Source: Candidatus Eiseniibacteriota bacterium
Lineage (GTDB): Bacteria; Eisenbacteria; RBG-16-71-46; JABDJR01
Direction: 5' to 3'
Length of the DNA: 64,000 nt
Assembly: GCA_963783375.1 (NCBI GenBank)
Contig: CAWANH010000028.1
Coordinates: 1,389,670-1,453,669, forward strand
Below, one piece after another: positions 40,341 through 58,915 of this stretch. The notes below the pieces were generated by a model, which searched no databases, was not told where the DNA came from, and saw only the letters and a program-made list of their open reading frames with translations. Made by a program: the position numbers and the translations under genes. Within the stretch, counting starts at the first letter, position 1. Each line of letters starts with the position of its first letter.

Positions 40341-41087
40341 GTGAAATCGTGGCGGACAGCCGGCGTTTGCGTGGCGACGGCCGCTCTGGCCTGGCTCACT
40401 CCCGCCAGCGCCGAAGCGAAGTCGGTTCGGAAGAGCGCTCCGGAGACGGTGGAGCTTCTCGACGTACCGTACGTCCCCCAGAGCGGAGAGCTGTGTGGCG
40501 GAGCGGCACTCGCCATGGTTCTGCGCTACTGGGGGAAATCCGGCGTCCTGGCGGAGGATTTCGCCCCGCTTGCGGAGCCGGGAGCGGGCGGTATCCGTAC
40601 CGGCGCACTGGTGAGGTGGGTCGAGGCCCATGGGTGGTCCGCGCTCCGCTTGCCGGGAGCCCCGGCGGAGGTCGAGAGTCATCTTGCCCGGGGCCGCCCG
40701 GTCATCGCTCTGATCCGGACCGGTTCGGGCTCCTACCACTACGTGGTACTCGTGGCCTGGGCCAACGGGTGGGTGATCCTCCATGACCCCAACGTGGGGC
40801 CGTTCCGAACCGTTCGGGAAGGGGAGTTCGAGACCGCCTGGTCGGGAAGCGACGACTGGGCACTCCTGGTCCTGCCGCCTCCCGCGCCTCGGGAGCCGGT
40901 CCTGCCGGATTCCGGAGGCGCCGACCTCCCTCCCCGCGTCATCCCCGATGGATGCGGCGCCTTGGTGGACGCGGGGGTCCTCTTGGCCCGGGAAGGAGAC
41001 ATCGCGGAAGCGGAGCTCAAGCTTCGTGGCGGCTCAGTCCCTTTGCCCCGAGTCCGCCGTCCCCGCTTCGGGAACGGGCAGGGTTGA
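40341..41087 (+). CDS. peptidase C39-like (papain-fold) domain protein with a signal peptide
   Basis: GTG start and a signal peptide. VPYVPQSGELCGGAALAMVLRYWG matches the Peptidase_C39_2 Gln/Cys region. The C-terminal 20 aa look like out-of-frame read-through. Confidence 0.6.
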   Translation: MKSWRTAGVCVATAALAWLTPASAEAKSVRKSAPETVELLDVPYVPQSGELCGGAALAMVLRYWGKSGVLAEDFAPLAEPGAGGIRTGALVRWVEAHGWSALRLPGAPAEVESHLARGRPVIALIRTGSGSYHYVVLVAWANGWVILHDPNVGPFRTVREGEFETAWSGSDDWALLVLPPPAPREPVLPDSGGADLPPRVIPDGCGALVDAGVLLAREGDIAEAELKLRGGSVPLPRVRRPRFGNGQG

Positions 41088-42417
41088 GATTTCGTGCCGA
41101 GGACTGGGAGGGGGCGGCCGGCTCGCGGAGGAGGCGCTGGCTCTGGATCCGGGCGATGCCCACTCCTGGCGGCTTCTGGCCGGAAGCCGCTTCCTGGCCG
41201 GGGACGTGGAAGGGGCGCTCACGGCCTGGAATCACCTGTCCGAACCCAGGATCGACCTGACCCACATCGACGGCCTGAATCGCATCCGCTACTCCGCGGT
41301 GGCCGGCCAGCTCGCCTTGCCTCCCGGGCGGCTCCTCACGCCTCAGGCCTTCCTCCAGGCGCGCCGTCGTCTGGCCGAATTGCCCTCCCAGTCCGATTTC
41401 CGGCTGAGCTTGCGGCCCTTGCCGGACGGAAGGGCTCAAGTGGATGTGTCCGTGCTGGAGCGCCCTCCGCTGTTCGGCGGTTTCTGGGACGCCGGAAACC
41501 TGGGCATCCGGGCGCTCCTGGACCGGGAGATCACCCTCGACGTCGTGAGCCCCACCGGGAACGGGGAACTATGGAATGCCGGATGGCGGTGGCAGAGGCA
41601 ACGGCCGCGCGTCGCCCTGGACCTGGCGGTGCCGGGGGCCGGAGGCCGGCCCGGAATCTGGCATGTGGCCGGATTCTGGGAACGACAGACCTATGCCTAT
41701 CCGGGGTTCGCCGGCTCGGGTGGCGCGACTCGTTCCCGGTCGATCCAGGAAGAGCGCCGGCGCACCGCCCTGTCCATTTCCGATTGGATCGGCCCGAATT
41801 TCCGGCTCGAGGTCGGGAGCGCCCTGGACGAGTGGGTGGGTCGGGGATCCCATCTTTCACTGGAGGGTAGCGTCGAGACCCGATGGGCACGAGACCGCCT
41901 GGCATTGGGGGCAAGGGGAGCAAGGTGGATGAGCCTCGCGGACGGCGCCCCGTTCGGCGCCGGCGGCCTCTCGCTCACCTGGTGCTCGGATGGTCTCGAG
42001 AGGCGCGAGGGGTGGCAGGGCGGTCTGGAAGTATCCGCCGCTACCCGGGAGGCTCCACTGGCTCTCTGGTCCGGAGCCGGAACCGGGTCCGGGCGTACCC
42101 CGCTCCTCAGGGCTCACCCGCTGCTGAACGGGGGGGTTCTGGAAGGGCGGGTGTTCGGGCGGGCGCTTGCTCACGGGACGATCGAGAGGCAGGTGTGGTC
42201 GCACAGCCTCGGTCCCTTCCGTCTCGGCTGGGCGGTCTTCGTCGACGGGGCCAAGCCATGGGACCTGGGGCGCCCGGGCCGGGTCCCGTGGCAGGTGGAC
42301 GGCGGAACGGGGCTCCGGGTTCACGGTCCGGGAATGAAGGGGAAACTCAGGGTCGACGCCGCCCGCGGGCTTCTCGACGGGAGCTCGGCGGTATCCGTCG
42401 GTTGGAGCATTCCCTGA
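41026..42417 (+). CDS. TPR plus POTRA plus beta-barrel (Omp85/TpsB-like) protein, probably the 3' part of the C39 gene across a frameshift
   Basis: Frame +1 encodes TPR-like LAEEALALDPGDAHSWRLLAGSRFLAGDVEGALTAWN. It then encodes a POTRA-like segment (IDGLNRIRYSAVAGQLALPPGRLLTPQAFLQARRRLAELPSQSDFRLSLRPLPDGRAQVDVSVLE) and a beta-rich C-terminus. This frame has no signal peptide or RBS of its own. Deleting one nucleotide near 41023-41028 joins it to the C39 ORF. Confidence 0.5.
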   Translation: MAAQSLCPESAVPASGTGRVEISCRGLGGGGRLAEEALALDPGDAHSWRLLAGSRFLAGDVEGALTAWNHLSEPRIDLTHIDGLNRIRYSAVAGQLALPPGRLLTPQAFLQARRRLAELPSQSDFRLSLRPLPDGRAQVDVSVLERPPLFGGFWDAGNLGIRALLDREITLDVVSPTGNGELWNAGWRWQRQRPRVALDLAVPGAGGRPGIWHVAGFWERQTYAYPGFAGSGGATRSRSIQEERRRTALSISDWIGPNFRLEVGSALDEWVGRGSHLSLEGSVETRWARDRLALGARGARWMSLADGAPFGAGGLSLTWCSDGLERREGWQGGLEVSAATREAPLALWSGAGTGSGRTPLLRAHPLLNGGVLEGRVFGRALAHGTIERQVWSHSLGPFRLGWAVFVDGAKPWDLGRPGRVPWQVDGGTGLRVHGPGMKGKLRVDAARGLLDGSSAVSVGWSIP

Positions 42418-42503
42418 GCGGGGGCACCCTTCTCGATCTCGCCCAGAGCCTTCACGGGGCTGGCGACAATGCTGCTCCGCACACCTCCTGACCAGAGTCT
42501 CTC

Positions 42504-43667
42504 CTATCGCAGAAGTACAACTCTCCCCCGGGCAAGCGCCACGCCGCGGCGGGAGGCCTCGAGGAAGTAGACACCCTCCGCGAGACGCCGCCCCACACTG
42601 TCCCGTCCGTCCCAGGCAATCCCGTGGTCCATGTCAACGCCGGCAATCGCTAGCCGACGAACGAAGTGGCCAACCGAGTCGTACACCACCAGCGCATCCA
42701 GGTTGCCATTCACGCCGGACACTCGAATCAGCGTGTGTCCGCGGAACGGATTGGGCCGGGCAGTCATCAGCATCGGCTGGGTAGGAGGTGCCAGATCCGC
42801 ACCCAGCGTGGGAAGGGACAAGTCGGTCATCACCCAGATGCCACCGGGACCCGCAAACGCGATCGCCGTTCCATCCGGGGACCAGCATGGCTCCCGGGCG
42901 AGGTCCTCGCTCGAGGCCTTGATTTGGACGGGATCTCCTCCGGACGCAGGAATGGTCCAGAGGGTGTAGCGCTCATTGAGTCCGGGCTGGTGGAATCGAA
43001 TCGCATAGAGGATCCATGACCCGTCCGGGGACCAGTCCGGATCGCGAACTGTGTAGCGATTGTCGGGATGAGAGTAGAGCCCGGTTGGGGCGGCGCTGCC
43101 GTCGGCGGGGACCGTAAACAGAGTGCCGCTGCTGGTGTTGTTCACAAAGGCGATCTTCGAGCCATCCGGTGACCAGGACGGTGCCGTCGACTGGTTGCCG
43201 ATTCCCTCGATCGGGACACGCGCGGCATAGCCACCGGGGGTGGCGGGGCAGACGAATACGCGGGAGTTGACCGTGAATGCGAGCTGATCGCCGAGCGGCG
43301 ACCAACTCAAGTAGTTCGTGTTGCCCCCGAGGCCGGTTCGCAGCGTGTCCCCGGCCTCTACTCCCGGGCAGATCACTGTCCCGCCCGGGGACTCGAAGGC
43401 AACGCTGCTGCCGCCGGGGGACCAGGTGGGGAACCACGCGATCGAGCCAGCGAGATCATAGGTGACCTCCACCGGCGCTCCGCCGGAGCTGGGGACGATC
43501 ATGATGTGATAGCCACGCGTATAGACGATTCGATTGGATCCGTCCCGTGACCACTGAGGGTCATAGCCGCTGTCGAAGGTGATCTGGGTAAACGTGGCGG
43601 CGGTGGCGGGGCCGCTGACGAAACCGAGTGCGGCAAAGAGGAGAAAGAAGAAGGGCAAAGCACGCAT
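42504..43667 (-). CDS. TolB-like WD40/PD40 beta-propeller protein with a T9SS/FlgD-Ig-type C-terminal sorting domain
   Basis: Signal peptide and repeated WSPDGS PD40 motifs. C-terminal PNPFRGHTLIRVSGVNGNLDALVVYDSVGHFVRRLA...GVYFLEA sorting domain. Confidence 0.75.
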   Translation of the reverse strand: MRALPFFFLLFAALGFVSGPATAATFTQITFDSGYDPQWSRDGSNRIVYTRGYHIMIVPSSGGAPVEVTYDLAGSIAWFPTWSPGGSSVAFESPGGTVICPGVEAGDTLRTGLGGNTNYLSWSPLGDQLAFTVNSRVFVCPATPGGYAARVPIEGIGNQSTAPSWSPDGSKIAFVNNTSSGTLFTVPADGSAAPTGLYSHPDNRYTVRDPDWSPDGSWILYAIRFHQPGLNERYTLWTIPASGGDPVQIKASSEDLAREPCWSPDGTAIAFAGPGGIWVMTDLSLPTLGADLAPPTQPMLMTARPNPFRGHTLIRVSGVNGNLDALVVYDSVGHFVRRLAIAGVDMDHGIAWDGRDSVGRRLAEGVYFLEASRRGVALARGRVVLLR

Positions 43668-44287
43668 CCAGACCTCCTCGAATCAACGCGATCTTGGGAT
43701 CGCAACCCCGAGAGTGCGGAACCGCCAAGAATTTATCATATCAAAGATGCGCAGGGGCACGATTGGAGACGTTCGAGCCTCGCGGGTCCGGATACCGAGA
43801 TCTCTTCGGGCGGTCAAGACCGGGGCGATTGAGCCCAATTCCCTCCGGGGATGGCGCACCGGCGGGTTCCCGTCCAGAAGGGCCTCACTCCCGGCAATTC
43901 CGCGACTCCGGAGCTGCCAAGTTACTGGCCAGCCCCGAGTTCAGGCCCTATGGGAGCATCTTGAGGAGAGAGAGTATTTCCCAGACAGTTGGAATCCTGG
44001 CACCCGATCCTCAATCTCCAGACCTCCCGCCATCAGCCGACCGAGCCAGGGGTACCCTCCAATCAGCTTCGGCTAGCGAGCCCGCTTTCCCCGTCAAGAA
44101 ACTGTCGAGCTTCAAACTGCTCCCTGGGCCAGCCTCGGCCCCGGTGAACGCCATGATGACGTGGAGGGTCGAAGACCGGATGCACGATCAGAATGCGAAT
44201 CCCGTTGCGAAGCAGCCTTCCTCTGACTCGTCTTACACCAACTCCATGCGACGAGGTCGGCCGTCTCGGTGAGGCCATCGTGCGATT

Positions 44288-44785
44288 GTGCCGATGCCTG
44301 CGGAGACCGCGGGAGCGACGAACCTCGACCCCCTGAAGATCGACTCTCGCCCCTGTACGAGATGCAAGCGCCGGATCGGTTGCGACGATGACCACCGTCC
44401 GGAGTGGGCCAATCAGAGGCTCTCGGAACTCCAGCACGAGAAGGCGGCACTGGAGCCCCAGGAGCCGGCCTTGAAGAAGCCGCCGAAACTAACGGCCGGA
44501 GACGTGACCGAGTACACCCGGAACCTGTCCGGGCTGCTGGGCCACGCTAACCAACGGGAAAGAAAGGAGTTGGTGGGTATGATCGTGGAGAAAATCAAAC
44601 TGGCCCCGGAGCGTCGGGAGGTAGAACTCGTCTACCGCGCTCCGGAGCCAGTCATGAATAGGTTGGTAGCGGGGGTGCGTTACGGGGCCCGACAGAGGAA
44701 TCTCGGAGGCGAATTCGAGGTCATCGAGCTGGCGTTCGAGCCCCGGGGGAACACGTTGGTCCTGGTGGGGGCGGCCGGCGGGTAG
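44288..44785 (+). pseudogene. C-terminal fragment of a large serine recombinase (zinc-ribbon plus coiled-coil tail); the catalytic domain is absent
   Basis: CTRCKRRIGC partial zinc ribbon. Then a coiled coil and a tail (ERKELVGMIVEKIKLAPERREVELVYRAP) typical of large serine recombinase C-termini. No resolvase catalytic domain is found upstream in any frame. Confidence 0.35.
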
Positions 44786-44799
44786 GAGAGCGGGTTCGC

Positions 44800-44870
44800 C
44801 GGGACGTCCTTGACGTCTCGCGATGGCCCGGATAGAATCACCAGCAGATTCGCATAACCGCTGGTATTTC
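44800..44870 (+). promoter_or_regulatory. inverted and direct repeats upstream of abiEi (candidate autoregulatory operator)
   Basis: GACGTCcttGACGTC (44802-16). Inverted repeat ACCAGC...GCTGGT (44840-45 / 44860-65), flanked by the GATAGAAT / ATTTCTATTC arms. Confidence 0.35.
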
Positions 44871-44875
44871 TATTC

Positions 44876-45502
44876 ATGAAGACAGAACATAACTCAAATC
44901 AGGACAGCACGTTTGCCAGGGCGGTGGCCGTCTTCCGCGACCACGGAGGGGTGCTCAGGACAATGGAGGCGGTCCGGCTCGGCGTCCACCCGCGAACGCT
45001 CTATGCCATGCGGGATGCCGGGGTGCTGGAGCAACTCGGGCGGGGGCTCTACCGGCTGGCGAACCTGCCGCCACTCGGGAACCCCGACCTGGTGGCGGTA
45101 GGCCTCCGCGTTCCGGAGGGGGTCCTCTGCCTGATCTCGGCGCTGGCGGTTCACGAGATCACGACCCAGATCCCTCATGAGGTCCATCTGGCTCTCAAGC
45201 GTGGCGCCGAACCACCACGGCTGGATCACCCCCCGGTTCGGGTGTTCTGGTTCTCGGGAAAGGCTTTCACGGAAGGGATCGAAACCCACGAGCTGGACGG
45301 GATCGAAATCCGCGTCTACGGGGCGGCGAAGACCGTGGCGGACTGCTTCAAGTACAGAAACAAGCTCGGACTGGATGTGGCCCTCGAGGCGCTGGGACTC
45401 TACCTGCGAGAGAAGCACGGACCCCCCGACGATCTCGTGCACTTCGCTCGCGTATGTCGTGTCGAAAAGGTGATGCGCCCCTACATCGAGGCCCTCCTGT
45501 GA
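44876..45502 (+). CDS. abiEi: AbiEi-family antitoxin / transcriptional regulator (type IV TA)
   Basis: AbiEi_4-like N-terminal winged-HTH (VAVFRDHGGVLRTMEAVRLGVHPRTLYAMRDAGVLEQLGRGLYRL). Its stop overlaps the GTG start of the downstream nucleotidyltransferase gene. Confidence 0.7.
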   Translation: MKTEHNSNQDSTFARAVAVFRDHGGVLRTMEAVRLGVHPRTLYAMRDAGVLEQLGRGLYRLANLPPLGNPDLVAVGLRVPEGVLCLISALAVHEITTQIPHEVHLALKRGAEPPRLDHPPVRVFWFSGKAFTEGIETHELDGIEIRVYGAAKTVADCFKYRNKLGLDVALEALGLYLREKHGPPDDLVHFARVCRVEKVMRPYIEALL

Positions 45503-46419
45503 AGCGCCGGCAGGTGGGAAACGTGGCGGTCTCCGTTCATCAGCGCCTGCTCAACGAGGCGCGTGCGTCCGGCCGGCCATTCAATGAGCTACTCCAGTAC
45601 TTCGCCATGGAGCGATTCCTATTCCGGCTGTCCGCGTCGCCATACGCCGAGAGGTTTGTTCTGAAGGGGGCGCTCATGCTCGCGACGTGGGAGATCTCCC
45701 TCACGCGTCCCACCAAGGACATCGACCTACTGGGCAACGTGACCAACGACGTCGATCACATCGTGGCGATCGTGAAGGAAGTGTGCCGTCAAGAGGTCAC
45801 GCCGGACGGCCTGGACTTCGACCCGGAGAGGGTGCGTGGGGAGCAAATCGCCGAGGAAGCCGAGTACAACGGGGTGCGTGTCCGCTTTCAGGGGCGCCTC
45901 GGTACGGCGCGGATTTCCATGCAGATCGACATAGGCTTTGGTGACGCCGTGGTACCAGGCCCGGTGGCGGTCGAGTATCCCACGATGCTGGACCTTCCAG
46001 CTCCACGGATTCGCGCCTACACACAAGAGAGCGTGATCGCTGAGAAGTTCCACACCATGGTTCGCCGGGGACTCCTCAACAGCCGAATGAGGGATTTCTT
46101 CGATGTCTGGGCCCTATCGCGGCAGTTCGACTTCGATGGGCCGGTTCTGGCGGCAGCAATCCGCGAGACGTTCTCGCGGCGAGGGCAAGGCTTTGCTCCA
46201 CACCCCGTGGCGCTGACAAAGGAGTTCGCGGAGGATAGGTCGAAGGTGGCGCAGTGGCGGGGTCTTCTACGGAAGAGCCGCCTGCAGGGCGCGCCGGGCG
46301 AGCTGGCGGATGTGGTTGACGCCATTGCCGTCTTCCTCGGCCCGGTTGCAGAGGCCCTCTATGAGGATCGGGAGTTCCGAGGCCGTTGGGATGCGCCCGG
46401 TCCCTGGACGTTGGCGTGA
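45499..46419 (+). CDS. abiEii: AbiEii/AbiGii-family nucleotidyltransferase toxin
   Basis: DUF1814-type fold, with LLQYFAMERFLFRLSAS...KGALML and a nucleotidyltransferase-fold core. The GTGA overlap with abiEi is typical operon coupling. Confidence 0.75.
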   Translation: MKRRQVGNVAVSVHQRLLNEARASGRPFNELLQYFAMERFLFRLSASPYAERFVLKGALMLATWEISLTRPTKDIDLLGNVTNDVDHIVAIVKEVCRQEVTPDGLDFDPERVRGEQIAEEAEYNGVRVRFQGRLGTARISMQIDIGFGDAVVPGPVAVEYPTMLDLPAPRIRAYTQESVIAEKFHTMVRRGLLNSRMRDFFDVWALSRQFDFDGPVLAAAIRETFSRRGQGFAPHPVALTKEFAEDRSKVAQWRGLLRKSRLQGAPGELADVVDAIAVFLGPVAEALYEDREFRGRWDAPGPWTLA

Positions 46420-46572
46420 AGTCCGGTTCTCCCGCGGGAAGCGGGCGCCCATCTTCCCGGACGGGGGGACGACGCCGATGGGGTCATCCGGGGCGCAGAG
46501 CCAGCCCAGAAGGCAGCGGTTCCTTTCGGGCCCAGTTTCTCGCGGGTGCCGGCGACCTCGGCTTTCGTGGCG

Positions 46573-47164
46573 TGGGAGAGCCGTGAAACAAGTTCCCATC
46601 CGTACCACCGGTGCCGGGAAACGCCCTGCCGAACTGGTCTCCCTGCGTGAATACGCCCGCCGGCGGAGCATCTCCCACGTCGCGGTGATCCGTGCCATCC
46701 GCTCGGGCCGGATCTCGACCGTTGGCGGGAAGATCGACCCGAAAGTGGCCGACCGGGAATGGCGGGAGAACACCGACCCGTCGAAACCCCGAAGCCGGAT
46801 CACCGGCAGGCCGAATCACCGGCGACGACCCGGGGAACCGTCCACCCCGATGAACCTCGACGGCTACGGGGCCAGCGACACCACAGCGGCCGGTTACGCG
46901 AGGGCCCGCGCGGCGCGCGAGCTTTACCGGGCCCAGCTCCCGAAACTCGAGCTCGATTGCCGACGCGGAATCCTCGTCCGGGCCGACGAGGTCCGGCTCG
47001 GCGCCTTCAACGTGGCCCGGAAGGCCCGGGACCAGCTGATCGCTCTCCCGGGCCGTATGTCGGCCCGTATCGCGGCGGCCGGGGACCCGGTCGAGATTCG
47101 GCGGATCCTCAAGGAGGAAATCGAGCGGATCTGCCGGGAGATCGTGGACACAGGACCGCCGTGA
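46573..47164 (+). CDS. phage Nu1-like terminase small subunit / HTH DNA-packaging protein (orphan)
   Basis: N-terminal HTH AELVSLREYARRRSISHVAVIRAIRSGRISTVGGKIDPKVADREWREN resembles lambda Nu1. The C-terminal region is coiled. No large terminase nearby. Confidence 0.4.
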
Positions 47165-47286
47165 GGTCGGCGAGGCGGCCCGCTGCCCCGACGGGGGAAA
47201 TGGACCCAGGGGAGGGAGTACCCTCCGAGGCAGGGGCCGGCTCGGGTCACTATTGGGCGGACTTCCCCATCGAGCTGGTGTTCGTG

Positions 47287-47874
47287 CTACTGCGACGCTC
47301 TTGCCGACCGGAAGTAGAAGTCCAGCATGGCGCTCAGCGGGGCGGCATCCCGCTTCAGCCGGCTTCGAAGCGCCGCACCCTCCCAGCAGTCGACCAGTAG
47401 GCCCGCCATCTGCCGGGGATCGGAGCCGGCCGGGATGTCCCCGTTCCGGCGGGCCTCCTCCAGGCAGGCGGCCAGCCGCTCGGCGATCCCGGAGAAGCAC
47501 TCCTCGATCCTGGCCCGGAATGCGTCGCTGACCCCCGAGAGTTCCTGGCCGAGACCGCCGAGCAGGCAGCCCATGTAGCCCTCCTTCCGGTAGTGCTCCC
47601 GGGTCATCTCGAAGAAGTGACGCACCCGCTCAAGCGGGGGGCGGCGCGTGTCACCCAGGCAGGCATCCAGGCCGGCGTGCACCTCGCGCATGTACCGGTC
47701 GACGACCTGGAGCGCGAAGTCCTCCTTGTCCCTGAAGTGGTGGTAGAAGGAGCCCTTCGGGATCCCCGTGGCCTCCAGCAGGACCTGGACACCCAGCCCG
47801 TTGTACCCGTGCTCCAGGAGCATGGCCAACCCGGCGGTGAGCAGGCGATCCTTGGTCGGGTGCGTCGACTCCAT
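47287..47874 (-). CDS. TetR/AcrR family transcriptional regulator
   Basis: N-terminal HTH LLTAGLAMLLEHGYNGLGVQVLLEATGIPKGSFYHHFRDKE. Start assigned at the internal ATG at 47874. Confidence 0.8.
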   Translation of the reverse strand: MESTHPTKDRLLTAGLAMLLEHGYNGLGVQVLLEATGIPKGSFYHHFRDKEDFALQVVDRYMREVHAGLDACLGDTRRPPLERVRHFFEMTREHYRKEGYMGCLLGGLGQELSGVSDAFRARIEECFSGIAERLAACLEEARRNGDIPAGSDPRQMAGLLVDCWEGAALRSRLKRDAAPLSAMLDFYFRSARASQ

Positions 47875-47888
47875 TCTCGTGCGCGTTC

Positions 47889-48275
47889 CTACTTCTTGAC
47901 CTTCTCGATCATGTGGTTGATGACGTGGGTGTGTTCGGACTGGGGGCTGAACATCACGATCTCGGCATCGGCCTCGACGCGGACGTTGTGCCCGGGAGGC
48001 CAGTAGAAGAGGTCGTTCGCGTTGACCGACTCCTCCGCGCCGCTCGCGTCGATCGTGGTGATCCGGCCCCGGAGGACGTAGCCCCAGTGGGGGCACTGGC
48101 AGAGGTTCCCCTCCAGCCCTTCGAAGAGGGGGGTGGTATCGACACCCGCCGACAGGGTGAAGTACTCACCGCTGATCGCGCCGAACCCGCTCGCGTCTCC
48201 GAACCCCTTCTGCTGGCGGACCACGGCGCCGGGGATCTCCATCTGGACCTCGACATTGTCTTTCGCTATTCGCAT
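47889..48275 (-). CDS. cupin domain protein
   Basis: 128 aa from MRIAKDNVEVQM, with a conserved cupin barrel (GEYFTLSAG...HWGYVLRGR). RBS AAGGAG 8 nt upstream. First gene of an operon with the TetR gene. Confidence 0.7.
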   Translation of the reverse strand: MRIAKDNVEVQMEIPGAVVRQQKGFGDASGFGAISGEYFTLSAGVDTTPLFEGLEGNLCQCPHWGYVLRGRITTIDASGAEESVNANDLFYWPPGHNVRVEADAEIVMFSPQSEHTHVINHMIEKVKK

Positions 48276-48307
48276 GCCGGACTCTCCTTCAACTGGTTGT
48301 GGGGGCC

Positions 48308-48330
48308 TGACTAGACCGATCAGTCTAGTG
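48308..48330. promoter_or_regulatory. 7-bp-arm palindrome upstream of the cupin-TetR operon (candidate TetR operator)
   Basis: TGACTAGACcgatcaGTCTAGTG, with arms ACTAGAC / GTCTAGT. Confidence 0.4.
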
Positions 48331-48547
48331 GGGAAGGGTACACCACGCTCTGGCCGTGTCAAGGAAGATGCGGGGTGACCCGGCGGACCCGGGCGGGGAT
48401 GCACGCAGCTCCGATGGCCGCCGGTGCGATCCAGTATCCTCCACCGGTAAAGAGGGTTACGAGGTCGGGATGGCCGGATGACCGGGTGGCAATTGGCGAG
48501 CGCCGGCTCTCTCCGGGTGGAATACAAAGGTGCACGGGTGTACGTCG

Positions 48548-49516
48548 TCAACCCAAATGAGACAGCTCCGGTTCTGGGTTAAGAGAGACTTCGGTTCGGT
48601 AGAGCGCCGGCAGGATCCGTTCCTCCGGCGTGACCGACAGGCCCTGGTTCAGGCGGCACCGACGGCGTAGGGTCTGCCGCTTGAACTTCTCCCGGGCGGT
48701 CTCGATGTCCCGTCCCCGCCCGTAGTAGACATCCGCCGGCGTCAGGTTGTTCAGCGACTCGTGCACGCGCTCGTGGTTGTAGTACCTCACGAACCGCTCC
48801 AGCTCCGCCTCCAACTCCCACGGCAGGTAGTAGTTCTGGAGCTTCACCACGTTCTTCATCGTCCGGTGGTACCGCTCGATCTTCCCCTGGGTCATCGGGT
48901 GATAGGGCTTTCCCCGGGTGTGGGTCATGCCATGGCTCTGGAGGTACTCGGCCAGCTCCTTCGAGATGAAGCACGGACCGTAGTCGCTCAGGAGCCGGGG
49001 TCGGTGCCGGACCTCCACCCGGCGGACTCCGGTCCGCTCCAGGGCCACGTCCAGGACCTCGGTCACATCCTCGCTCGACATCCCGGTGAAGAGCTTCCAG
49101 GCCAGGATGTAGCGGCTGTAGTCGTCCAGCACCGTGAGCACGTAGTACCAGCCCCAGCCTACCACCTTGAAGTACGTGAAGTCGGTCTGCCAGAGCTCGT
49201 GGACCCGCCGGGTCGGCTGGTCGAACTGGTCCTTGGCCGAGATCAGCACGTAGGCCGGGCTCGTCACCAGGTCGTAGCTCTTCAGGATCCGGTAGACGCT
49301 GGACTCCGAAATGAAGAACCCGCCCCGGTCGGTGATCCGCCAGGCCAGCTCCCGCGGGGACAGATCCGGCTCCGCCAGCGCCTCTTCCACAACCTTCTCC
49401 CGCTCCACCTCTGGGATCCGGTTCCAGAACGGCCGGGGCCCGGCGGCTTCGGCTCCAGCCCCGCCGGGCCGCCGTCCACGTACGCCCCGTCCGGCGGATC
49501 GGCGAAAAGGGGACAT
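48548..49516 (-). CDS. IS3-family transposase OrfB (DDE integrase core)
   Basis: rve-type core from WQTDFTYFKV through LSDYGPCFISKE to the C-terminal ERVHESLNNLTPADVY. Its stop codon is supplied by flanking DNA 8 nt outside the IS end. Confidence 0.75.
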   Translation of the reverse strand: MSPFRRSAGRGVRGRRPGGAGAEAAGPRPFWNRIPEVEREKVVEEALAEPDLSPRELAWRITDRGGFFISESSVYRILKSYDLVTSPAYVLISAKDQFDQPTRRVHELWQTDFTYFKVVGWGWYYVLTVLDDYSRYILAWKLFTGMSSEDVTEVLDVALERTGVRRVEVRHRPRLLSDYGPCFISKELAEYLQSHGMTHTRGKPYHPMTQGKIERYHRTMKNVVKLQNYYLPWELEAELERFVRYYNHERVHESLNNLTPADVYYGRGRDIETAREKFKRQTLRRRCRLNQGLSVTPEERILPALYRTEVSLNPEPELSHLG

Positions 49517-50050
49517 TTCAGTTCGGCGAAATCGGGACAGCCGGGACCGGCGTTGACACCTCCACCAGGCGGATCGTCTACATCCGCTCCGCCGCCGTCG
49601 CCCTCACCGCGCCCCCAGGTCCTCGGGGTCCTCCCCCAACCCGGCTAAGTTTCTTTTTAACAGCTGGTTCCGCAGCGATAGGTCCGCCACCAGGTGCTTC
49701 AGCCGCCCGTTCTCCCGGCGCAACTCCGTCACGTCCCCGCTCGAGGCTTCCCGCTTGGTGTCGCCCATCAGCCGGCGCTTGCGCGCCTCCAGGAACTCCT
49801 TGCTCCAGTTGTAGTAGAGGTTCGGGCTGATCCCTTCCCGGCGGCAGAGCTCCGCGATGCTCTCCTCGCCCTTCAACCCCTCCAGCACGATCCGGATCTT
49901 GTCCTCGGCGGATTACCGGCGGCGGGTCTTCCGGCGGATCTGACGAACTCGAGCCTCTGGATCGGTTTGCTTCTCGGCCATGAAACACTCCTTTCGTGGC
50001 ACCAATGTACCGCAGAAGTGTCTCTTAACTCAGGCCCTGACTCTGTCCCA
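48558..50050 (-). mobile_element. IS3-family insertion sequence (1493 bp) with TG-initiated imperfect terminal inverted repeats; orfA is inactivated
   Basis: Left end TGAGACAGCTCCGGTTCTGGGTTAAGAGAGACTTCGG. Reverse complement of the right end TGGGACAGAGTCAGGGCCTGAGTTAAGAGACACTTCTG. orfA and orfB are internal. No clean target-site duplication. Confidence 0.7.
49604..49981 (-). pseudogene. IS3-family OrfA (HTH) with an in-frame TAA at codon 23
   Basis: From the ATG at 49981, MAEKQTDPEARVRQIRRKTRRR then TAA (49913-15), where a Tyr codon TAC is expected. This is followed by SAEDKIRIVLEGLKGEESIAELCRREGISPNLYYNWSKEF. The TTAAAAAGA slippery-like site near the 3' end leads into a -1 frame that terminates after 27 codons, not into orfB. 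Confidence 0.6.
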
Positions 50051-50203
50051 CTTAGTCTGACGCCGAACAAGGGAAGAAAGCTCCTGCCTGACACTGTGCC
50101 GCCCCCCCGCCTATCCGCTACAATCCGGTGTCCGCGCCATCCGTAGACGCGAGCTTCCGTACGTCCGAAGACTCATCGTTTCCTTCTTGGAGACCAGCAG
50201 GCC

Positions 50204-50920
50204 GTGAATGTGTATACGGTCCTCTCAGCTCTGCCAGCTGTCCTGGCCTTGGCTGGATTCCTTGCATACCAATTGCTACGGTACACCCATGCTGGTGATA
50301 ATATCACCAGGGACATTGTTGCGAAATTGCGACGAGAGCAACCCGAGATCGCAGACCGCTACGCACGCCTTTCACCCTCTCAGCTTCACAATCAACTCAA
50401 AGCAGATAGAGCATTACAACAAAAGATTAGCCAAATTGACTTCGAGCTTCTTAGGCAAGCACTGAGGCAACGGTTTCTTGAGTCTCTCTCAGTGTACGGC
50501 GCAACGCTCATTCTCTTCACTGTCGGCATTGTCGCGTTTGTCCGCACGATCTCGGCACGCCCTCTTCGTCTATCCGATTTCCACATCGAGAGCATAGATG
50601 ACCACGCGAAGGGTCTTGCTGTCGACACCGACACCTTGAGGGTTACCTGGAGGTCAGAAGGAACGTCCGCAGATGTGAGTTGCTATTTGCAAAATCTTCA
50701 GACTGGACGACGGTCGGACATTGAGCGCACTTCAGCAACCGAGCAAAATCTACTCTTTTCACCGACCTCCTACGTTGCTGTCCTTGATGCTCGGACCCGC
50801 GGATCATTCAATCGTATCCGGGCGGTTTTCACAGCCAGCAACAGTACATTTCAGTCTGAGGAATTCAAGCTGTACGTTGGGTTAACAATTCTCGCTTTCT
50901 ATGATTCCACAGACAATTAG
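50204..50920 (+). CDS. hypothetical 2-TM membrane protein in a low-GC (~50%) segment
   Basis: GTG start. TM at 8-25 (SALPAVLALAGFLAYQLL) and at ~100-120. No family recognised. Composition is atypical for this genome. Confidence 0.45.
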   Translation: MNVYTVLSALPAVLALAGFLAYQLLRYTHAGDNITRDIVAKLRREQPEIADRYARLSPSQLHNQLKADRALQQKISQIDFELLRQALRQRFLESLSVYGATLILFTVGIVAFVRTISARPLRLSDFHIESIDDHAKGLAVDTDTLRVTWRSEGTSADVSCYLQNLQTGRRSDIERTSATEQNLLFSPTSYVAVLDARTRGSFNRIRAVFTASNSTFQSEEFKLYVGLTILAFYDSTDN

Positions 50921-51207
50921 CTATGTGCCGCAGCACTGATTGATAACGCTTCGATTCCGTGGTACCACTTTCGTGCCAAACTGATAGTACAAAGGATTGG
51001 ACCTACCTTGGATTGGATTGGCTTTGGGGACTCGATGGCAAGCCCCAAGACCTGCTATCACGTGGCGTCGCCTGACTCCTTGGAGTGGTCAACCCTCGCT
51101 GTTGCATACTTTGGACCGGATGATGATCGCCTGGTTCGTTCTGAGATTTTGGTCGGTGACACAACCCCCGGTGTATCACCTGATTGAACTTTCATCCCGG
51201 ATCGTCG

Positions 51208-51420
51208 CTACATAGACCTTCTCGGCATCCCGGGCCACCCGGCTCTCCATGTCACCGCAAAGACGTAGGCCTGCTCATAGACCTTCTGCGGGTTCCCGGC
51301 GAAGTTGGTAACGACGAACCGGGGGTTGTCCTTGGGCCTTTTGCCGGGGGGCCAGTAGCCGCTCCGCCTTGTAGTCCACCGGGCGGCAGCGAGGCCAGGC
51401 TTGGGGTTAGTTGCTAGGTC
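51208..51420 (-). pseudogene. IS4-like DDE transposase C-terminal fragment
   Basis: KRPKDNPRFVVTNFAGNPQKVYEQAY resembles the IS4-family ...PKD..RFVVTNL...ELY..RW.IE (YREK) region and then degenerates. Lies in a low-GC intergenic stretch. Confidence 0.4.
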
Positions 51421-51485
51421 TGGCCGTGATAGCGTTGCGGCAGGTCCTTGCCTGAGGTTGAGGGCTTGTAATTGCCGATGACACA

Positions 51486-52025
51486 ATGAAGTCGAGGATT
51501 TGTGTAATCCTCTTGGTAGATGACGAGCGAGCCCGGGCGGGCAGGGGGGGGGTGCCACCCAGCCCCTTGGCAAAGGCACCCGTCCTGAGCGACACTCCCC
51601 ACGCAGACATTGAGCCTCTGTCAGCGGAGGTAAGCGTGGCGCGCAAATCGGCAGTAAAGAAGCGGATCAGCTCGGAACAGATTGGCCGAGCCTTTGAGAC
51701 GCTCAACGGTGATTCGGAGACTCGTCTCAAACGCCTCATGGACGAGACGGGTTTGGAGGCTGCGAAGCTCATCAAGATCCTGGTCACATATAGGGCGCGG
51801 CACTGGGTCCAGCAGGAGTTCCCCGGCTACGCCAGTGCAGGCGAAGGCCGGAAGCCGGCGAAGGACAAAGTCACAGTGTTGGCCGCACTCAACAAGGCTG
51901 GTTCCATCGTCCAAGCCGCGAAGCTGCTCAAGACCACCCCGATCACGCTCAACCGTTGGATCGGCTACTACAAGCTGAAGCAAATCATCGAGTACGGGGG
52001 CGAGAAGAAAATCTCCTGGAAGTAG
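51486..52025 (+). CDS. hypothetical protein with a C-terminal Fis-type HTH
   Basis: C-terminal VTVLAALNKAGSIVQAAKLLKTTPITLNRWIGYYKL resembles the NtrC/Fis HTH_8. Contains a G9 homopolymer (51544-51552) in its coding sequence. Confidence 0.45.
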   Translation: MKSRICVILLVDDERARAGRGGVPPSPLAKAPVLSDTPHADIEPLSAEVSVARKSAVKKRISSEQIGRAFETLNGDSETRLKRLMDETGLEAAKLIKILVTYRARHWVQQEFPGYASAGEGRKPAKDKVTVLAALNKAGSIVQAAKLLKTTPITLNRWIGYYKLKQIIEYGGEKKISWK

Positions 52026-52030
52026 GGCGG

Positions 52031-52282
52031 TCAGTCGTCCTCGTTCTCGAAATTGAGTTCGATATCCTCCGGTTGCAACCTGGGCAACGACCGATCAGGG
52101 AACGTCTCGCGTGCCCAGTTCTCGGCGTAGCGCACAGCCACGGCACGAATCACGGCCCGCCCCGGGAGCCCCGTGTGCTCCACGATCCGGGCGAGACGGC
52201 GCTCCGAGGGACCTTTCAGACTGAAGTACAGATCCGCCAACTCCCTACCGGTGAACGTCTTCGAGGCGTCGATCGGTAACAT
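52031..52282 (-). CDS. small hypothetical protein (83 aa)
   Basis: MLPIDASKTFTGRELADLYFSLKGPSERRLARIVEHTGLPGRAVIRAV... No family recognised. Convergent with the previous gene. Confidence 0.35.
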   Translation of the reverse strand: MLPIDASKTFTGRELADLYFSLKGPSERRLARIVEHTGLPGRAVIRAVAVRYAENWARETFPDRSLPRLQPEDIELNFENEDD

Positions 52283-52377
52283 CGTACCCCCAGTCGTTGA
52301 TCGCCCACCCCACCTCTCTGAAAACGACTGGGGAGACACGATTCGGAAAGAGACGTGTGGGCAGGTACAGAGAGTGT

Positions 52378-53202
52378 CTAGCGAGGAGCAGCGAGAACCG
52401 CTTCAAACCCGGATGGGGTCCGGTAGGTCACGGCGAGGAAGGTCCGCCCGGACGTTTCGCTGCCGACGGGCGTTCGAATCTGGAACCGGTCGCCCTCGGC
52501 TGGCAGTTCGCCCCAGGAAAGCGTTAACGCTGGCAACCTGAGGATCGCCAGCCGACAGTCCGAGGCCTCAGGAGGGATGGATGCCTGATAGGTGCCGCCT
52601 CCCTCGGTCCGGAACGAGACCGTGCGTCCGCCCTGGGTGGTAGCGGGCGGGACCGGCTCCCCCTCGACGACGATTCCCCCCTCAGTCCATCGGAGTCTCT
52701 GGCGGAAGGCCAAGAGAGCGGCTTCTCGGAAGTCTTGAGGTGGTCGTGTCTGGGTCGCCTTGGACCCACGAACCGCGTCCACTTGGAACTGCTCACCGTA
52801 GTAGGGCGTATCCGCCACGAAACTAAGGGCTTCCCCGGATGGGTGCCGGACGCCACGAGCCAGGCCAATGGCGACGGCCAGCACGGCCGCCAGGCCCATC
52901 AGGAGTTGGATCGTCCGGGAGGGCCTGCGCTTGCGCCGCCGTTTGGGCACCACGGGGCGCGGCAGGGTCTGGAACTTCAGGGTGCCGCGCGCGATGGCGG
53001 CCAGGCCGACAAGCTCCTCCCGGAGCTCTCCGGATTGCGCGAGGAGCTGTGTGATGCGCTCCCGGTCCTCGGGAGTTACCGTTCCGTCAAGATAGTCCTC
53101 CAAGAGCTCGAGATCCACCTCCTCCGGGGACGACCGGAGGGCGAGGGATCGGAGGGCCGCTGAGAGTTCGGTGTCCGTCATGTGCTTCGCTTCACGCGCC
53201 AT
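52378..53202 (-). CDS. putative membrane-anchored anti-sigma factor
   Basis: Cytoplasmic N-domain, a basic stretch, then a single TM helix IQLLMGLAAVLAVAIGLA. Periplasmic beta-rich C-domain. Starts 13 nt after the ECF sigma gene. Confidence 0.5.
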   Translation of the reverse strand: MAREAKHMTDTELSAALRSLALRSSPEEVDLELLEDYLDGTVTPEDRERITQLLAQSGELREELVGLAAIARGTLKFQTLPRPVVPKRRRKRRPSRTIQLLMGLAAVLAVAIGLARGVRHPSGEALSFVADTPYYGEQFQVDAVRGSKATQTRPPQDFREAALLAFRQRLRWTEGGIVVEGEPVPPATTQGGRTVSFRTEGGGTYQASIPPEASDCRLAILRLPALTLSWGELPAEGDRFQIRTPVGSETSGRTFLAVTYRTPSGFEAVLAAPR

Positions 53203-53214
53203 CGGTCATACCCT

Positions 53215-53856
53215 CTACCGTCCGAGTTCCACGGAGATCCCCGTCCGCTCCAGTTGCTCGGTGAGCTTCCTCCGGCAATAGCGAACCTGGTCCGAGAGCT
53301 TCTTGTTCTCACTTGGCCCGGCTCCCAGGAGAATCTGAAGCTCTTGGGGTGTGTAGCCCTCGGCCGCGGCCTTGAGGAGGAGCTGACACTGTGGCGAGAG
53401 ATGCTCCAAGGCCACCTCGACCTGCCGGAGGAGCTCCGCGAGTTCGGCTTGAACCTCGGGATCTGGCTCGGAGCTCTCAAGGGCCTCCAAGAGCTCACTT
53501 AGATCTTCGTGCCGGCGGTGCTGCTCGTATTTCATGCAATCCCGCGTGCGATTGCGAAGCACCGTCCAAAACCAGGAGGCGAAGGCCCGCCCCTTGTTTT
53601 CGTAGCTCCGCAACCGCCGGAAGTCATCCTCTCGAAGATCGAACAGAAGTTTTTGAAAGAGGTCAGCTTGATCCTCTTCGGACAGAGAACGAAAGATGGC
53701 TGGAGGTCGGAGCTGAACCAGCCGCCACGCATAGACATAAAGCTCTTCCCACGCCTTCTCGGGATTGGCGTCGAGCCAGTCCATGAAGGACGGCCAAGGA
53801 TCAGCGAGGATGGAAAAGGCGACAGGGTCCGTCCGGCCTGTCTCGACCTGAGACAT
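53215..53856 (-). CDS. ECF (sigma-70 family) RNA polymerase sigma factor with an N-terminal extension
   Basis: Region 2 DLFQKLLFDLREDDFRRLRSYENKGRAFASWFWTVLRNRTRDC. Region 4 CQLLLKAAAEGYTPQELQILLG...SDQVRYCRRKL. Start assigned at MSQVETGR (53856). Confidence 0.75.
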   Translation of the reverse strand: MSQVETGRTDPVAFSILADPWPSFMDWLDANPEKAWEELYVYAWRLVQLRPPAIFRSLSEEDQADLFQKLLFDLREDDFRRLRSYENKGRAFASWFWTVLRNRTRDCMKYEQHRRHEDLSELLEALESSEPDPEVQAELAELLRQVEVALEHLSPQCQLLLKAAAEGYTPQELQILLGAGPSENKKLSDQVRYCRRKLTEQLERTGISVELGR

Positions 53857-53938
53857 GCGCCAGACTGTAGTGACACTCGGCACCTCACTGCAATGCACAA
53901 TGCTGAGCCTCGCCTGTTTCCCCCATCGAGATAACGTT

Positions 53939-54973
53939 TCAGGCGGCGGATTTCGGAATAGAAACCGCCAAATGTGCTGCTTTGAGAGAGTTCCAGGGGC
54001 AGCCCAAGTCCTCCGCCTGCCCCGTGGCCACCCCCTGTAGCCACGGGGCCAATCTACCGGGATCGAGGACAAGGGTTCCGTCGGGGTTGATCCGGCCGAC
54101 CCGGTTCCGGGAGTCGGTAAGGGCGACCGTGCACTTGTTGAGGTCTCCGTTCGCCCGGATGACCCAGGATGTGGCCATGGCCGCGTAGCAGATTGGAGGC
54201 GGTGGTGGGGCGGCATAGAGCCCAAGTTCCTCTGCTCTGTGCCGCAAGACCGCGATCGTCTCGTGCCCGTTGTGCCCGTCTAGTACGGGCAAGATCGGAT
54301 CGTTCACTCCCCCGAGTCGCTCCAACGGCCGGATGAAAAAGGAGAACCGTGCGTCGTGCGCGAACGCCTGGGCACACTCCGTGAGGAGCTCTGGCAAGCG
54401 TTCGGCATTGGCCCGGGTGACATGGATCCGGACGATCACAGAGAAGGGCAAGCGCTGGTCCTTTAGCGCGACGAGGCTCTCCCAGACTTGGGCGAACGTC
54501 CCCCTGCCGTTGGGGCGCTTCCTCACCGCATCATGGTCGGGCTCAACCCCATCGAGGGTGATCTGGTAGTGCATGACACCGAGCCGAATGAGCTCCTCGG
54601 CGGTTCCGGGGGAGAGAAGGTCGCCGTTTGTGGTCATGTCCGAATCGACTTGGACCGCGGGATGCCGAGTGCGCAAATCTTGGACGTGGGCCATGATCTC
54701 ACGCACGACGTCAAGGGCGACGAGCGGTTCCCCACCGAACCAGGACAGATCGAGCCGGCAGAGGTCGGGCACGCGAACATCGAGCAACCGTTTGATCCCC
54801 TGCACCACGGGCGGAGGCATGCGGGACAGCCGGAAGTCCTCGTAGCAGTAGTGGCAGCGGAAGTTACAGCGCTCGGTCGAAAAGAGGACGAGATGGAGCC
54901 GTCGGGACGAGAGGGCCTTCCCGTACCCCGAAGCTCCGCTCTGCTTGGTGGGTCTCACTTGGCGCGTCAGCAC
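53939..54973 (-). CDS. radical SAM / SPASM-domain peptide-modifying enzyme
   Basis: CNFRCHYC radical SAM motif, plus C-terminal SPASM cysteines (ICYAAMATSWVIRANGDLNKCTV...C). The track ORF extends to a GTG at 55204, but that extension has only ~52% GC3. Start reassigned to the GTG at 54973 (alternative 54958). Confidence 0.8.
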   Translation of the reverse strand: MLTRQVRPTKQSGASGYGKALSSRRLHLVLFSTERCNFRCHYCYEDFRLSRMPPPVVQGIKRLLDVRVPDLCRLDLSWFGGEPLVALDVVREIMAHVQDLRTRHPAVQVDSDMTTNGDLLSPGTAEELIRLGVMHYQITLDGVEPDHDAVRKRPNGRGTFAQVWESLVALKDQRLPFSVIVRIHVTRANAERLPELLTECAQAFAHDARFSFFIRPLERLGGVNDPILPVLDGHNGHETIAVLRHRAEELGLYAAPPPPPICYAAMATSWVIRANGDLNKCTVALTDSRNRVGRINPDGTLVLDPGRLAPWLQGVATGQAEDLGCPWNSLKAAHLAVSIPKSAA

Positions 54974-55170
54974 TTGTAGTTCGGAAGGATCGGCGGCCAG
55001 TCGTCTCCGTTGGGCTCCTGTAACGATGTGGTAAGCGTGGACACCACGCGGCCATGCGCGTCGAATTGGAGTTCGTGGCGGACAGGCATCTGGGCGTGCG
55101 CGGGCCGAGTTCCGAGGAGAAGGGTGACAAGCATGGCGCCTTGGAGCGTATACGTCGCAGATCGTTCCAC
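54967..55170 (-). CDS. small exported Cys-terminal peptide (67 aa), a candidate precursor/substrate of the adjacent rSAM-SPASM enzyme
   Basis: GTG at 55170 with a GGAGG RBS 6 nt upstream. VERSATYTLQGAMLVTLLLGTRPAHAQ (signal-like, AHA-Q) is followed by MPVRHELQFDAHGRVVSTLTTSLQEPNGDDWPPILPNYKC. GC3 in this frame is ~73% versus ~52% in the overlapping rSAM-extension frame. Its stop overlaps the rSAM GTG. Confidence 0.45.
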   Translation of the reverse strand: MERSATYTLQGAMLVTLLLGTRPAHAQMPVRHELQFDAHGRVVSTLTTSLQEPNGDDWPPILPNYKC

Positions 55171-55215
55171 AGCAGACCTCCGGTCGAAACGGACACCGCC
55201 CCACGGCGGAGGTCG

Positions 55216-58188: not shown

Positions 58189-58342
58189 AGGATCCGGTTG
58201 TGAAAAGATTCCGAAAATGGTCCCTCTCAGTCGTTACAAAAGAGGTGGGCCGGTCCAGCTCGGTAGTCACTCGCCGAGCGGTGGGGCCACGGCCCAGAGA
58301 GGATATCACGTGGTGCCGGCCCCCAGTCGATGGTGGAGAAAC

Positions 58343-58405
58343 GGGGGAAACTAGGCTTCTTCACGACCGTGGGGGAAGTTCTAGGTTTCTTCACTGCGGG
58401 GGCTG
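58343..58405. repeat. tandem ~28-bp direct repeats (2.3 copies) in the CHAT operon upstream region
   Basis: GGGGGAAACTAGGCTTCTTCACGACCGT / GGGGGAAGTTCTAGGTTTCTTCACTGCG / GGGGCTGG. Confidence 0.5.
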
Positions 58406-58794
58406 GCGCCATCTCCCGCAATCGGATCCTGCCCGGGAAATGGAAGCGGCTCTGTGACGCGTCGAGGGGGGAGTCATTGCCTAAGGAAGGCCAGAAGAGC
58501 GTGGCAAGCAAAGGGGTCAGGCCGGAGTACGGCACCCGATCAACGGGCGAACCCGAAAACACCCGGGTGCTAACAAATCCCGTGCGGCGCATGACCATAG
58601 GGAGCCCGCTCTTGATCGTTACTCGGACGGGCTCCTAGGTCAGAGAAGGACGCCAAGCCCCCTATTCGGCCACTTCTCTGGGGGCATGTAACTCCGCCAG
58701 TCTACTGCCAGCGGAACAGCAGGCGCAGTTGCGAACACGGACAGTTTGGAGACTTGAGTCCCGAGGCTTACCCTCGCACTCGCGCCCCAGAGAA

Positions 58795-58830: not shown

Positions 58831-58838
58831 CCTAAAAT

Positions 58839-58915
<77 letters not shown>

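Follow-up and report, generated by a model that had tools for sequence, protein, structure and literature searches.

Characterised large serine integrases target mostly protein-coding genes. In phiC31, Bxb1, A118 and SPbeta SprA, as in the full-length relatives described below, a coiled-coil and terminal segment comes after the Resolvase, Recombinase and zinc-ribbon domains. SSV1-type archaeal tyrosine integrases target tRNA genes and carry their attachment site (attP) within the int open reading frame (ORF), which is altered by integration. Use of t(m)RNA genes was listed for 14 of 297 serine-integrase islands, stated as unreported before and needing proof (Mageeney et al. 2020, PMC7192596). 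Tandem tRNA arrays have been described mainly for tyrosine integrases, a second serine integration beside attR not being canonical. In the literature searched, no serine integrase that combines an intragenic attP with an initiator-tRNA target was described. We analysed a 64,000-nucleotide (nt) stretch of a Candidatus Eiseniibacteriota genome (the window, about 67% GC) that carries what appears to be the 3' remnant of such an integrase gene (the stub), together with an AbiE pair, a small terminase gene (terS), a cupin-TetR operon and an inactivated IS3-family element. Unlike phiC31, Bxb1, A118 and SPbeta SprA, the family of the stub carries its core sequence within the 3' end of its own coding region and targets the initiator tRNA-Met gene, and the window copy is without any catalytic part. 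In our view the region is likely a mosaic: at least three pieces would have been acquired independently, and none of them is self-mobile. For this genome that would amount to ordinary decay at a variable locus that gathers and erodes foreign DNA, with AbiE and cupin-TetR as what persists there, and the tRNA-targeting integrase family would be the sole unusual part of the region.

Comparison with a sister genome

The window was aligned to a 2.39-Mb contig of a sister genome (L110; the labels L001 to L113 denote the other contigs and genomes used in comparisons, namely the sister genome, metagenome contigs and viral contigs). The two were 98.4% identical, with 98.2-98.5% on both sides of a strain-specific segment, L110 1-10980 corresponding to window 58282-47296 and L110 11418-19616 to window 42430-34242. 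The segment contains a beta-propeller gene, the integrase stub, AbiE, terS and a vestige of about 11 codons of the large terminase gene (terL), and its right breakpoint falls inside tetR, 3 codons short of the stop. TetR-cupin, the IS3 copy and the 50-58.3 kb region were common to L110 and the window. The features considered here were the following.

42431-47295, no strand: strain-specific 4.87-kb (4865 bp) segment, replaced by 437 unrelated bp in L110
42504-43667, minus strand: intact PD40 beta-propeller gene with FlgD_ig C-terminal domain, inside the segment (Pfam PD40 1e-12, FlgD_ig 1e-5)
44288-44785, plus strand: 5'-truncated large serine integrase pseudogene, a 165-amino acid (aa) ORF homologous in its last ~120 residues only
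44663-44676, plus strand: 14-nt core TTGGTAGCGGGGGT, codons L-V-A-G-V, attP-type and unrecombined (14-mer search, DNA homology)
44810-44838, plus strand: sigma-70-like promoter TTGACG-17-TAGAAT, 10 of 12 positions matching
44876-45502, plus strand: abiEi, 208 aa, complete (Pfam AbiEi_4 4e-12; PADLOC AbiEi 4e-73, positions 6-197 of 198)
45499-46419, plus strand: abiEii, 306 aa, complete nucleotidyltransferase toxin gene (Pfam AbiEii 3e-47; PADLOC 5e-104, positions 3-298 of 299)
46541-47164, plus strand: phage-derived leader and intact terS (46583-47164, 193 aa; phrog_57 5e-26, covering 9-173 of 199)
47150-47185, plus strand: vestige of the first ~11 terL codons, ATG changed to ACA, DNA homology to phage ending at ~47180
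47287-47877, minus strand: TetR-family regulator, 196 aa, full length (Pfam and profile matches)
47889-48275, minus strand: 128-aa cupin, full length, upstream of TetR in the same operon (profile matches)
48539-50069, minus strand: inactivated IS3-family element (domains, inverted repeats, ISSsp2 and L110 alignments)
58838-58915, minus strand: initiator-type tRNA-Met(CAT) with the 14-nt core at its 3' end and an adjoining terminator hairpin, an unoccupied attB (tRNA and Rfam scans, 14-mer match)

The segment was recovered from other sources as well. Metagenome contig L001 corresponds to 42411-47296, that is, exactly to the segment, and an independent JGI contig (L113) spans 45526-48324 without gaps, including the right junction; together L001, L003, L004 and L113 reproduce the segment and both junctions (100% identical or gap-free). 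Of 1395 aligned coding bases in AbiEii and TerS, 3 differed between L113 and the window, as against 33 of 978 in TetR-cupin, so that the segment is far closer than TetR-cupin between these strains, which suggests that it moved recently between strains. The cupin-TetR cassette (47296-48538) was present in three other contigs; it shares its context with L110, adjoins an RND efflux operon in L111 and has a third setting in L112. In L111 cupin-TetR is accompanied by 389 nt of the 437-bp segment of L110, and homology to the window starts exactly at the end of the insertion sequence (IS), 48538. The IS3 copy occupies the same site in L110 and is already damaged there, making it independent of the 42431-47295 segment.

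An initial annotation of 43668-50050 had combined a recombinase tail, the AbiE pair, a small terminase gene, TetR-cupin and an inactivated IS3, every one of which is present, into one old, decayed integrated element or prophage. Debris of mobile elements without autonomy is what we found, but a single element or prophage is not, since L110 splits the region into independent units. An old age is doubtful for the 4.87-kb segment given the few differences from L113, and TetR-cupin, shared with L110 and placed in other contexts in L111 and L112, does not fit as cargo of the same element. The annotation had proposed a comparison with closely related genomes to delimit the insertion; a close relative does lack part of the region, but the segment starts at 42431 and not 43668, the beta-propeller gene having been left out.

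As we reconstruct the mosaic, a first, strain-variable piece (piece A, 42431-47295) holds the beta-propeller gene, the last ~400 bp of an integrase gene with a complete attP-type core and native tail, a complete AbiEi/AbiEii pair with its promoter, an intact terS to which a phage late-operon leader is fused, and the first ~11 codons of terL, the catalytic part of the integrase and terL presumably having been lost by deletion. The second (piece B, 47296-48538) is a conserved two-gene cupin-TetR operon found in several genomic contexts. The third (piece C, 48539-50069) is an IS3 element that would have inserted and suffered frame damage before the window and L110 lineages split, and that would since have acquired two nonsense codons and a spoiled slippery site.

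The alternative that survives best is possible, if somewhat unlikely: the 4.87-kb segment would be ancestral and not a recent gain, the distal remnant of an island array that had long existed downstream of tRNA-Met, and L110 would have lost it by deletion. Third-position GC would agree with this, being 0.72-0.80 in genes across ~38.6-58.6 kb and thus below that of core genes (0.85-0.93), as would the serial occupation of the tRNA locus in relatives and a scar of L110, a degenerate NtrC-like remnant, at the same place. Against it, the 437-bp segment is contiguous with TetR in L111 too, and hence belongs to the cupin-TetR cassette, and the difference of 3/1395 in the segment versus 33/978 in the cassette fits recent transfer better. 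Read by eye, the reverse strand of L110 10981-11417 (437 bp) gives sigma-54-type activator fragments with a degenerate Walker A motif and a Fis-type helix-turn-helix (HTH) ending in ...ATLYRKLKR, and by this reading the 437 bp are another scar, a degenerate NtrC/Fis-HTH-like remnant.

The integrase stub and its tRNA-Met-targeting relatives

No Pfam domain matched the ORF at 44288-44785, and a word-indexed homologue search, a tblastn against plasmids and a PDB search with the 165-aa ORF returned the ORF itself alone or nothing. An exhaustive HMMER search of 1.84 billion protein representatives gave 132 matches. Long homologues among them (P0016, 572 aa; P0038, 664 aa; P0079, 589 aa) carry Resolvase, Recombinase and Zn_ribbon_recom, and full-length homologues align to the stub through their final ~100-125 residues only, homology beginning at residue ~468 of a 567-aa relative. 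In the window the homologous part starts at ~44384-44405 and reaches 44761, covering the second coiled-coil helix, the terminal domain and a native tail. The stub therefore retains the C-terminal coiled-coil/terminal segment of large serine recombinases and is without the Resolvase catalytic domain with its serine nucleophile, the Recombinase domain and the zinc-ribbon. A tblastn of full-length integrases, plus two later relatives, against the 64-kb window found nothing beyond the stub at E<=1. Because homology is confined to the integrase C-terminus with nothing else in 64 kb, the stub is read as a 5'-truncated integrase gene, predicted to be a gene fragment and not a member able to act. A recombinase C-terminus without a catalytic domain was what the initial annotation had described, and the partner genes that might have lain outside the frames it inspected, the integrase catalytic domain and TerL, are absent across all 64 kb. 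The viral contigs searched held no relative of the integrase tail.

The C-termini of the relatives point to the target. The pattern VAG.GFEP..FGL ends 32 of the 132 homologue representatives and is the reverse-complement translation of the tRNA-Met gene; the tRNA of the window, read on the plus strand, gives V-A-G-V-G-F-E-P-T-T-F-G-L-stop. The stop codon of integrated integrase copies is the complement of U33-C34-A35 in the anticodon loop. About 55-60 of the 132 representatives have instead a conserved native tail after VAG, the attP form. An integrase ORF overlaps the tRNA-Met(CAT) gene in L092 and L104, the L104 integrase being complete (567 aa), and a tblastn integrase match overlaps it in L103; in L103 and L104 the integrase gene is found downstream of DivIC, at the locus that corresponds to that of the window. 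The flanks of L107 and L108 are 97% identical; in L107 the site is empty and a terminator hairpin comes next, and in L108 an element begins directly after the core. A 13-nt core, ACCCCCGCTACCA, is common to all att forms and is shared by the integrase 3' end and the tRNA-Met 3' end. Comparison of these sequences shows that the clade integrates into the 3' end of the initiator tRNA-Met gene, with a predicted crossover within a 13-14-nt core inside the coding end of the integrase itself, and on its homology the stub is assigned to this family. The tRNA of the window we take to be an initiator from its three G:C pairs beside the anticodon loop and its 1:72 mismatch, and it presumably resembles E. 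coli tRNA-fMet.

The nearest analogy is with the SSV1-type integrases, which likewise have attP within the integrase ORF, use a tRNA gene as target and have that ORF altered on integration. They belong to the tyrosine and not the serine superfamily, and their int is split into two large parts, whereas integration in the stub family would swap only the native C-terminal tail of ~35-40 residues for ~10 tRNA-encoded ones. The DivIC-tRNA-Met locus was found empty, occupied and multiply occupied in relatives, with displaced copies of the tRNA 3' end, a likeness to tandem tRNA arrays (Mageeney et al. 2020, PMC7192596). The locus is thus serially occupied, and attP-form integrase genes also occur at a distance from the tRNA. 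In L107 (736-1960) and L108 (738-1960) the complete tRNA-Met is separated from a 37-nt copy of the tRNA 3' end by a 1.1-kb cassette whose two minus-strand ORFs overlap; as read by eye from their translations, these ORFs would form a nucleotidyltransferase/HEPN-like toxin-antitoxin pair. It is at this second, 37-nt copy that the integrase element of L108 sits, L107 being empty there.

Within the window the 14-mer TTGGTAGCGGGGGT occurs exactly twice in direct orientation, at 44663 and at 58838 (tRNA 3' end); a direct-repeat search with a minimum length of 16 had passed over it. A 20-nt match between 44722 and 47268 from the repeat search was within chance expectation and was not used. The stub reads NRLVAGVRYGARQRNLG, the native attP-type tail, and its DNA homology to integrated forms (L092, L103, L104, L108) ends at 44675/44676, while that to attP forms (L086-L089) extends to 44696/44697. 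At the tRNA copy a terminator hairpin precedes the core on the plus strand, marking tRNA-Met as an unoccupied attB. With one attP-type and one attB-type configuration in direct orientation the repeats are not the two ends of one island. The att-like direct repeat that the initial annotation had suggested looking for, at 43.7 kb and near the tRNA, does exist, 14 nt long, but as an attP-type core and an empty attB-type tRNA end and not as an island-border pair. Recombination between the stub site and the tRNA site would produce the junctions CATGAATAGGTTGGTAGCGGGGGTTGGATTTGAACC (stub-core-tRNA) and CTTCCTAAAATTGGTAGCGGGGGTGCGTTACGGGGCC (terminator-core-tail). The recombinant ORF, the stub fused to tRNA-encoded GFEPTTFGL, was not in the protein collection, which thus gave no evidence of the attP-type site in use.

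A single decayed prophage or island at tRNA-Met with the 14-nt repeats (44663 and 58838) as its borders is on these grounds very unlikely. It would account for an exact 14-mer found only twice in 64 kb with one copy at the tRNA 3' end, for the atypical composition at ~48-58 kb and for the integrase elements that relatives carry at the same DivIC-tRNA-Met locus. Both repeats are parental, though, with integrase-upstream, core and native tail at 44.67 kb and terminator, core and tRNA body at 58.84 kb, where a recombinant pair would differ; no integrase adjoins tRNA-Met; and L110 shares 47296-58282 but has no integrase stub, showing that what lies between the repeats does not form a single unit. 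The tetranucleotide check suggested by the initial annotation gave only a mildly atypical usage for the 43668-50050 interval (r 0.94-0.96 to core), the strong deviation being at 48-58 kb with a minimum r of 0.79 at 50-54 kb.

We infer that the stub came either from an internal junction of a former tandem array at tRNA-Met or from a captured fragment of a non-integrated element. Serial occupation of the tRNA locus and attP-form integrases distant from the tRNA in relatives fit a former tandem junction. The short-read Logan contig L003 (window 42276-44676) stops exactly at the last base of the core, and its end may reflect a branch, with some sequences of that population continuing differently beyond the core. 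A further-reaching proposal, which we regard as doubtful, is that of an undescribed clade (attB the initiator tRNA-Met gene, attP core in its own L-V-A-G codons) in which the tail swap would report the integration state and help set directionality, and that the attP-type site of the window, in direct orientation to the empty attB 14.2 kb away, could serve a related integrase acting in trans, which would delete or mobilise 44677-58838. The comparative evidence for a serine-integrase clade that uses an initiator tRNA gene with an intragenic attP extends across many metagenomes, and such enzymes would add a conserved, universal landing site to the serine-integrase toolbox.

The AbiE pair, the terS remnant and the cupin-TetR operon

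AbiE systems combine type IV toxin-antitoxin and abortive-infection functions, and the pair in the window resembles them in that a winged-HTH antitoxin gene (abiEi) overlaps a DUF1814 toxin gene (abiEii) by 4 nt, with full-length profile coverage of both adjacent genes and a promoter. The promoter lies 38 nt upstream of abiEi and was the sole promoter-like match in 43600-48700, and the AbiEii translation shows a KDIDLL motif. From its sequence the pair has no feature that distinguishes it from known AbiE systems. It probably still works as a toxin-antitoxin/abortive-infection pair and would then also stabilise the segment. The initial annotation had named AbiEi/AbiEii and TetR-cupin as the intact survivors, and all four are full-length by profiles.

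TerS matches its family profile (phrog_57) as a whole protein. Nine viral (IMG/VR) contigs with a relative were found; amino acid identity was 67-69% in eight of them (L093-L100) and 37% in the ninth. Neighbours were profiled for one of these contigs, L096, in which a ParB-methyltransferase gene precedes terS and a 616-aa TerL (phrog_15, 6e-247) overlaps its end; L094 has an ORF of the same length in the TerL position. In the window the first 4 codons of terS and a leader of 45 nt equal those of the phage ParB-methyltransferase gene, itself absent here, and DNA homology runs 16 nt past the terS stop to a breakpoint at ~47180-47185. No TerL, and thus no cognate large subunit, was found in the 64-kb window, and the mutated and truncated start of terL indicates that TerS was orphaned by deletion. 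An intact small terminase gene without a large subunit agrees with the initial annotation, but its 'Nu1-like' label does not hold, as there was no Pfam match to Phage_Nu1 at E<=10 and no relative in PDB. PHROG scans of the ORFs neighbouring terS were negative, a tblastn of the L096 proteins against the window returned TerS only, and of the structural, lysis, replication and packaging modules of a prophage terS alone was present. The viral contigs with a TerS relative carried no such integrase, AbiE, TetR or cupin.

A small terminase gene without a large subunit beside defence genes is also a feature of phage-inducible chromosomal islands and satellites, and the segment could be a working phage satellite or defence islet in which a stand-alone TerS hijacks helper-phage packaging and AbiE is defence cargo. 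The intact terS ORF with a third-position GC of 0.80, the good AbiE promoter and the near-identity of the segment in two strains with different flanks, which suggests recent spread, speak for it. We nevertheless judge it highly improbable, since the still recognisable but mutated and truncated terL start shows a gene orphaned by deletion and not by design, unlike in satellites with a stand-alone TerS, the integrase catalytic domain, a primase or other replication gene and a regulator are all absent, and no relative of the arrangement was found in viral contigs.

The TetR protein of the cassette has both a TetR_N HTH and a TetR C-terminal domain, and the TetR-cupin operon probably still works. 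The L110 cupin is 97% identical to that of the window. The cupin had 6165 homologues, of which the best 120 were all at least 79% identical and came from many different contigs; among plasmid genes it was 78% identical to one from a 1,983-bp Marinobacter plasmid and ~48-60% identical to haloarchaeal ones. It is unusually conserved and widespread.

The IS3 copy, assembly quality and neighbouring genes

The IS3 copy, single in the window, resembles ISSsp2 (IS3, Novosphingobium pCAR3) in its HTH_Tnp_1 orfA, its rve DDE orfB, its TG..CA repeats and 53% aa identity over 438 residues. Unlike ISSsp2 it has two nonsense codons, an interrupted A7 run and a frame-scrambled OrfB HTH region. The terminal inverted repeats are imperfect, ~55-65 nt long with TG..CA ends, and CCC on both sides is a possible target duplication, seen by eye and weak in a 67% GC genome. 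Damage was read from frameshift-aware alignments to ISSsp2 OrfAB and to the L110 copy. orfA starts at ATG 49981 and is interrupted by TAA at 49913-49915, where intact relatives have Y or F (RR[YF]SAE), and orfB is interrupted by TAG at 49578-49580 within EKLEII. A G inserted at 49653 turns the slippery A7 run into A5GA3, and frame breaks at ~49526 and ~49428 fall in the OrfB HTH region, the rve domain being intact. The orfA HTH and orfB rve DDE domains are thus present but are not joined by a -1 frameshift at the slippery site. These results bear out the nonsense codon in orfA and the non-productive frameshift window of the initial annotation; its end at 50050 falls short, as the element runs 48539-50069. 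Two IS3 ORFs in one frame could suggest programmed read-through, a reading rejected on the alignments to ISSsp2 and L110. In the L110 copy, at the same site, orfA is intact, the slippery run is A7 and TAG is absent, yet there are four frame breaks, one of them common to the window. The two copies differ at ~6% of positions (indels counted), as expected from neutral decay of a copy that was dead before the window and L110 split, the shared blocks overall differing at ~1.5%. From its sequence the window IS3 is predicted to be a dead copy.

Several points weigh against the mosaic of independent pieces. The segment difference is either a gain in the window lineage or a loss in L110, which has its own 437-bp scar there, and the terL vestige is read from 16 nt of DNA homology with 5 of 11 codons identical. 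Serine integrases are not expected to recombine attP with attR, which makes a tandem-junction origin of the stub mechanistically not straightforward. Between the window and L110 there are 34 indels of 1-2 nt; 31 are single-base and several fall within ORFs. The contig_N names suggest long-read source assemblies, and no independent short-read contig covers the IS, so that some of the IS3 frame breaks could be consensus errors. The nonsense codons are substitutions and the absences of the integrase domains and terL are of kilobase scale, and neither is affected by indel-type consensus errors. An assembly artefact, with a chimeric join or consensus errors making the apparent pseudogenes, is hardly credible: many 1-2-nt indels relative to L110, some in ORFs, and contig names in the style of a long-read assembler would suit it, but four other contigs reproduce the segment and both junctions, the integrase and terL truncations span kilobases and are not indels, and TAA and TAG arose by substitution.

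To the left of the segment, at 40341-42417, a C39 peptidase ORF (248 aa) and a following 544-aa ORF overlap in different frames where L110 has one 621-aa gene. Indels at 41023, 41059 and 41116 explain the split, and the split ORF is either a pseudogene or a consensus error. To the right of the IS3 copy, 50070-52400 is the lowest-GC part of the window (0.52-0.60). Its ORFs of 238, 179 and 102 aa matched no Pfam, PHROG or PADLOC family, and several single-base indels relative to L110 sit within them. The minus strand of 52378-58188 encodes a TPR-CHAT protein (990 aa), a radical SAM/SPASM peptide-maturase-like protein, an ECF sigma factor and a zf-HC2 anti-sigma-like protein. The ECF sigma factor has a weak match (8.5e-4) to a type III-E CRISPR-associated RpoE model, and no Cas genes were recognised among the profiled window ORFs. 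Across 54500-58282 there were zero mismatches to L110, as against ~1.5% elsewhere in the shared blocks, and this may reflect recent recombination or a sweep. tRNA-Met(CAT), at 58839-58915 on the minus strand and followed by DivIC and enolase, is the single tRNA gene in the window, and an Rfam scan of the window recovered the tRNA alone. A motif of ~22-24 nt (GGGGGAA..CTAGG.TTCTTCAC) occurs twice in tandem at 58343-58394, in the spacer that separates the TPR-CHAT gene from the terminator of tRNA-Met.

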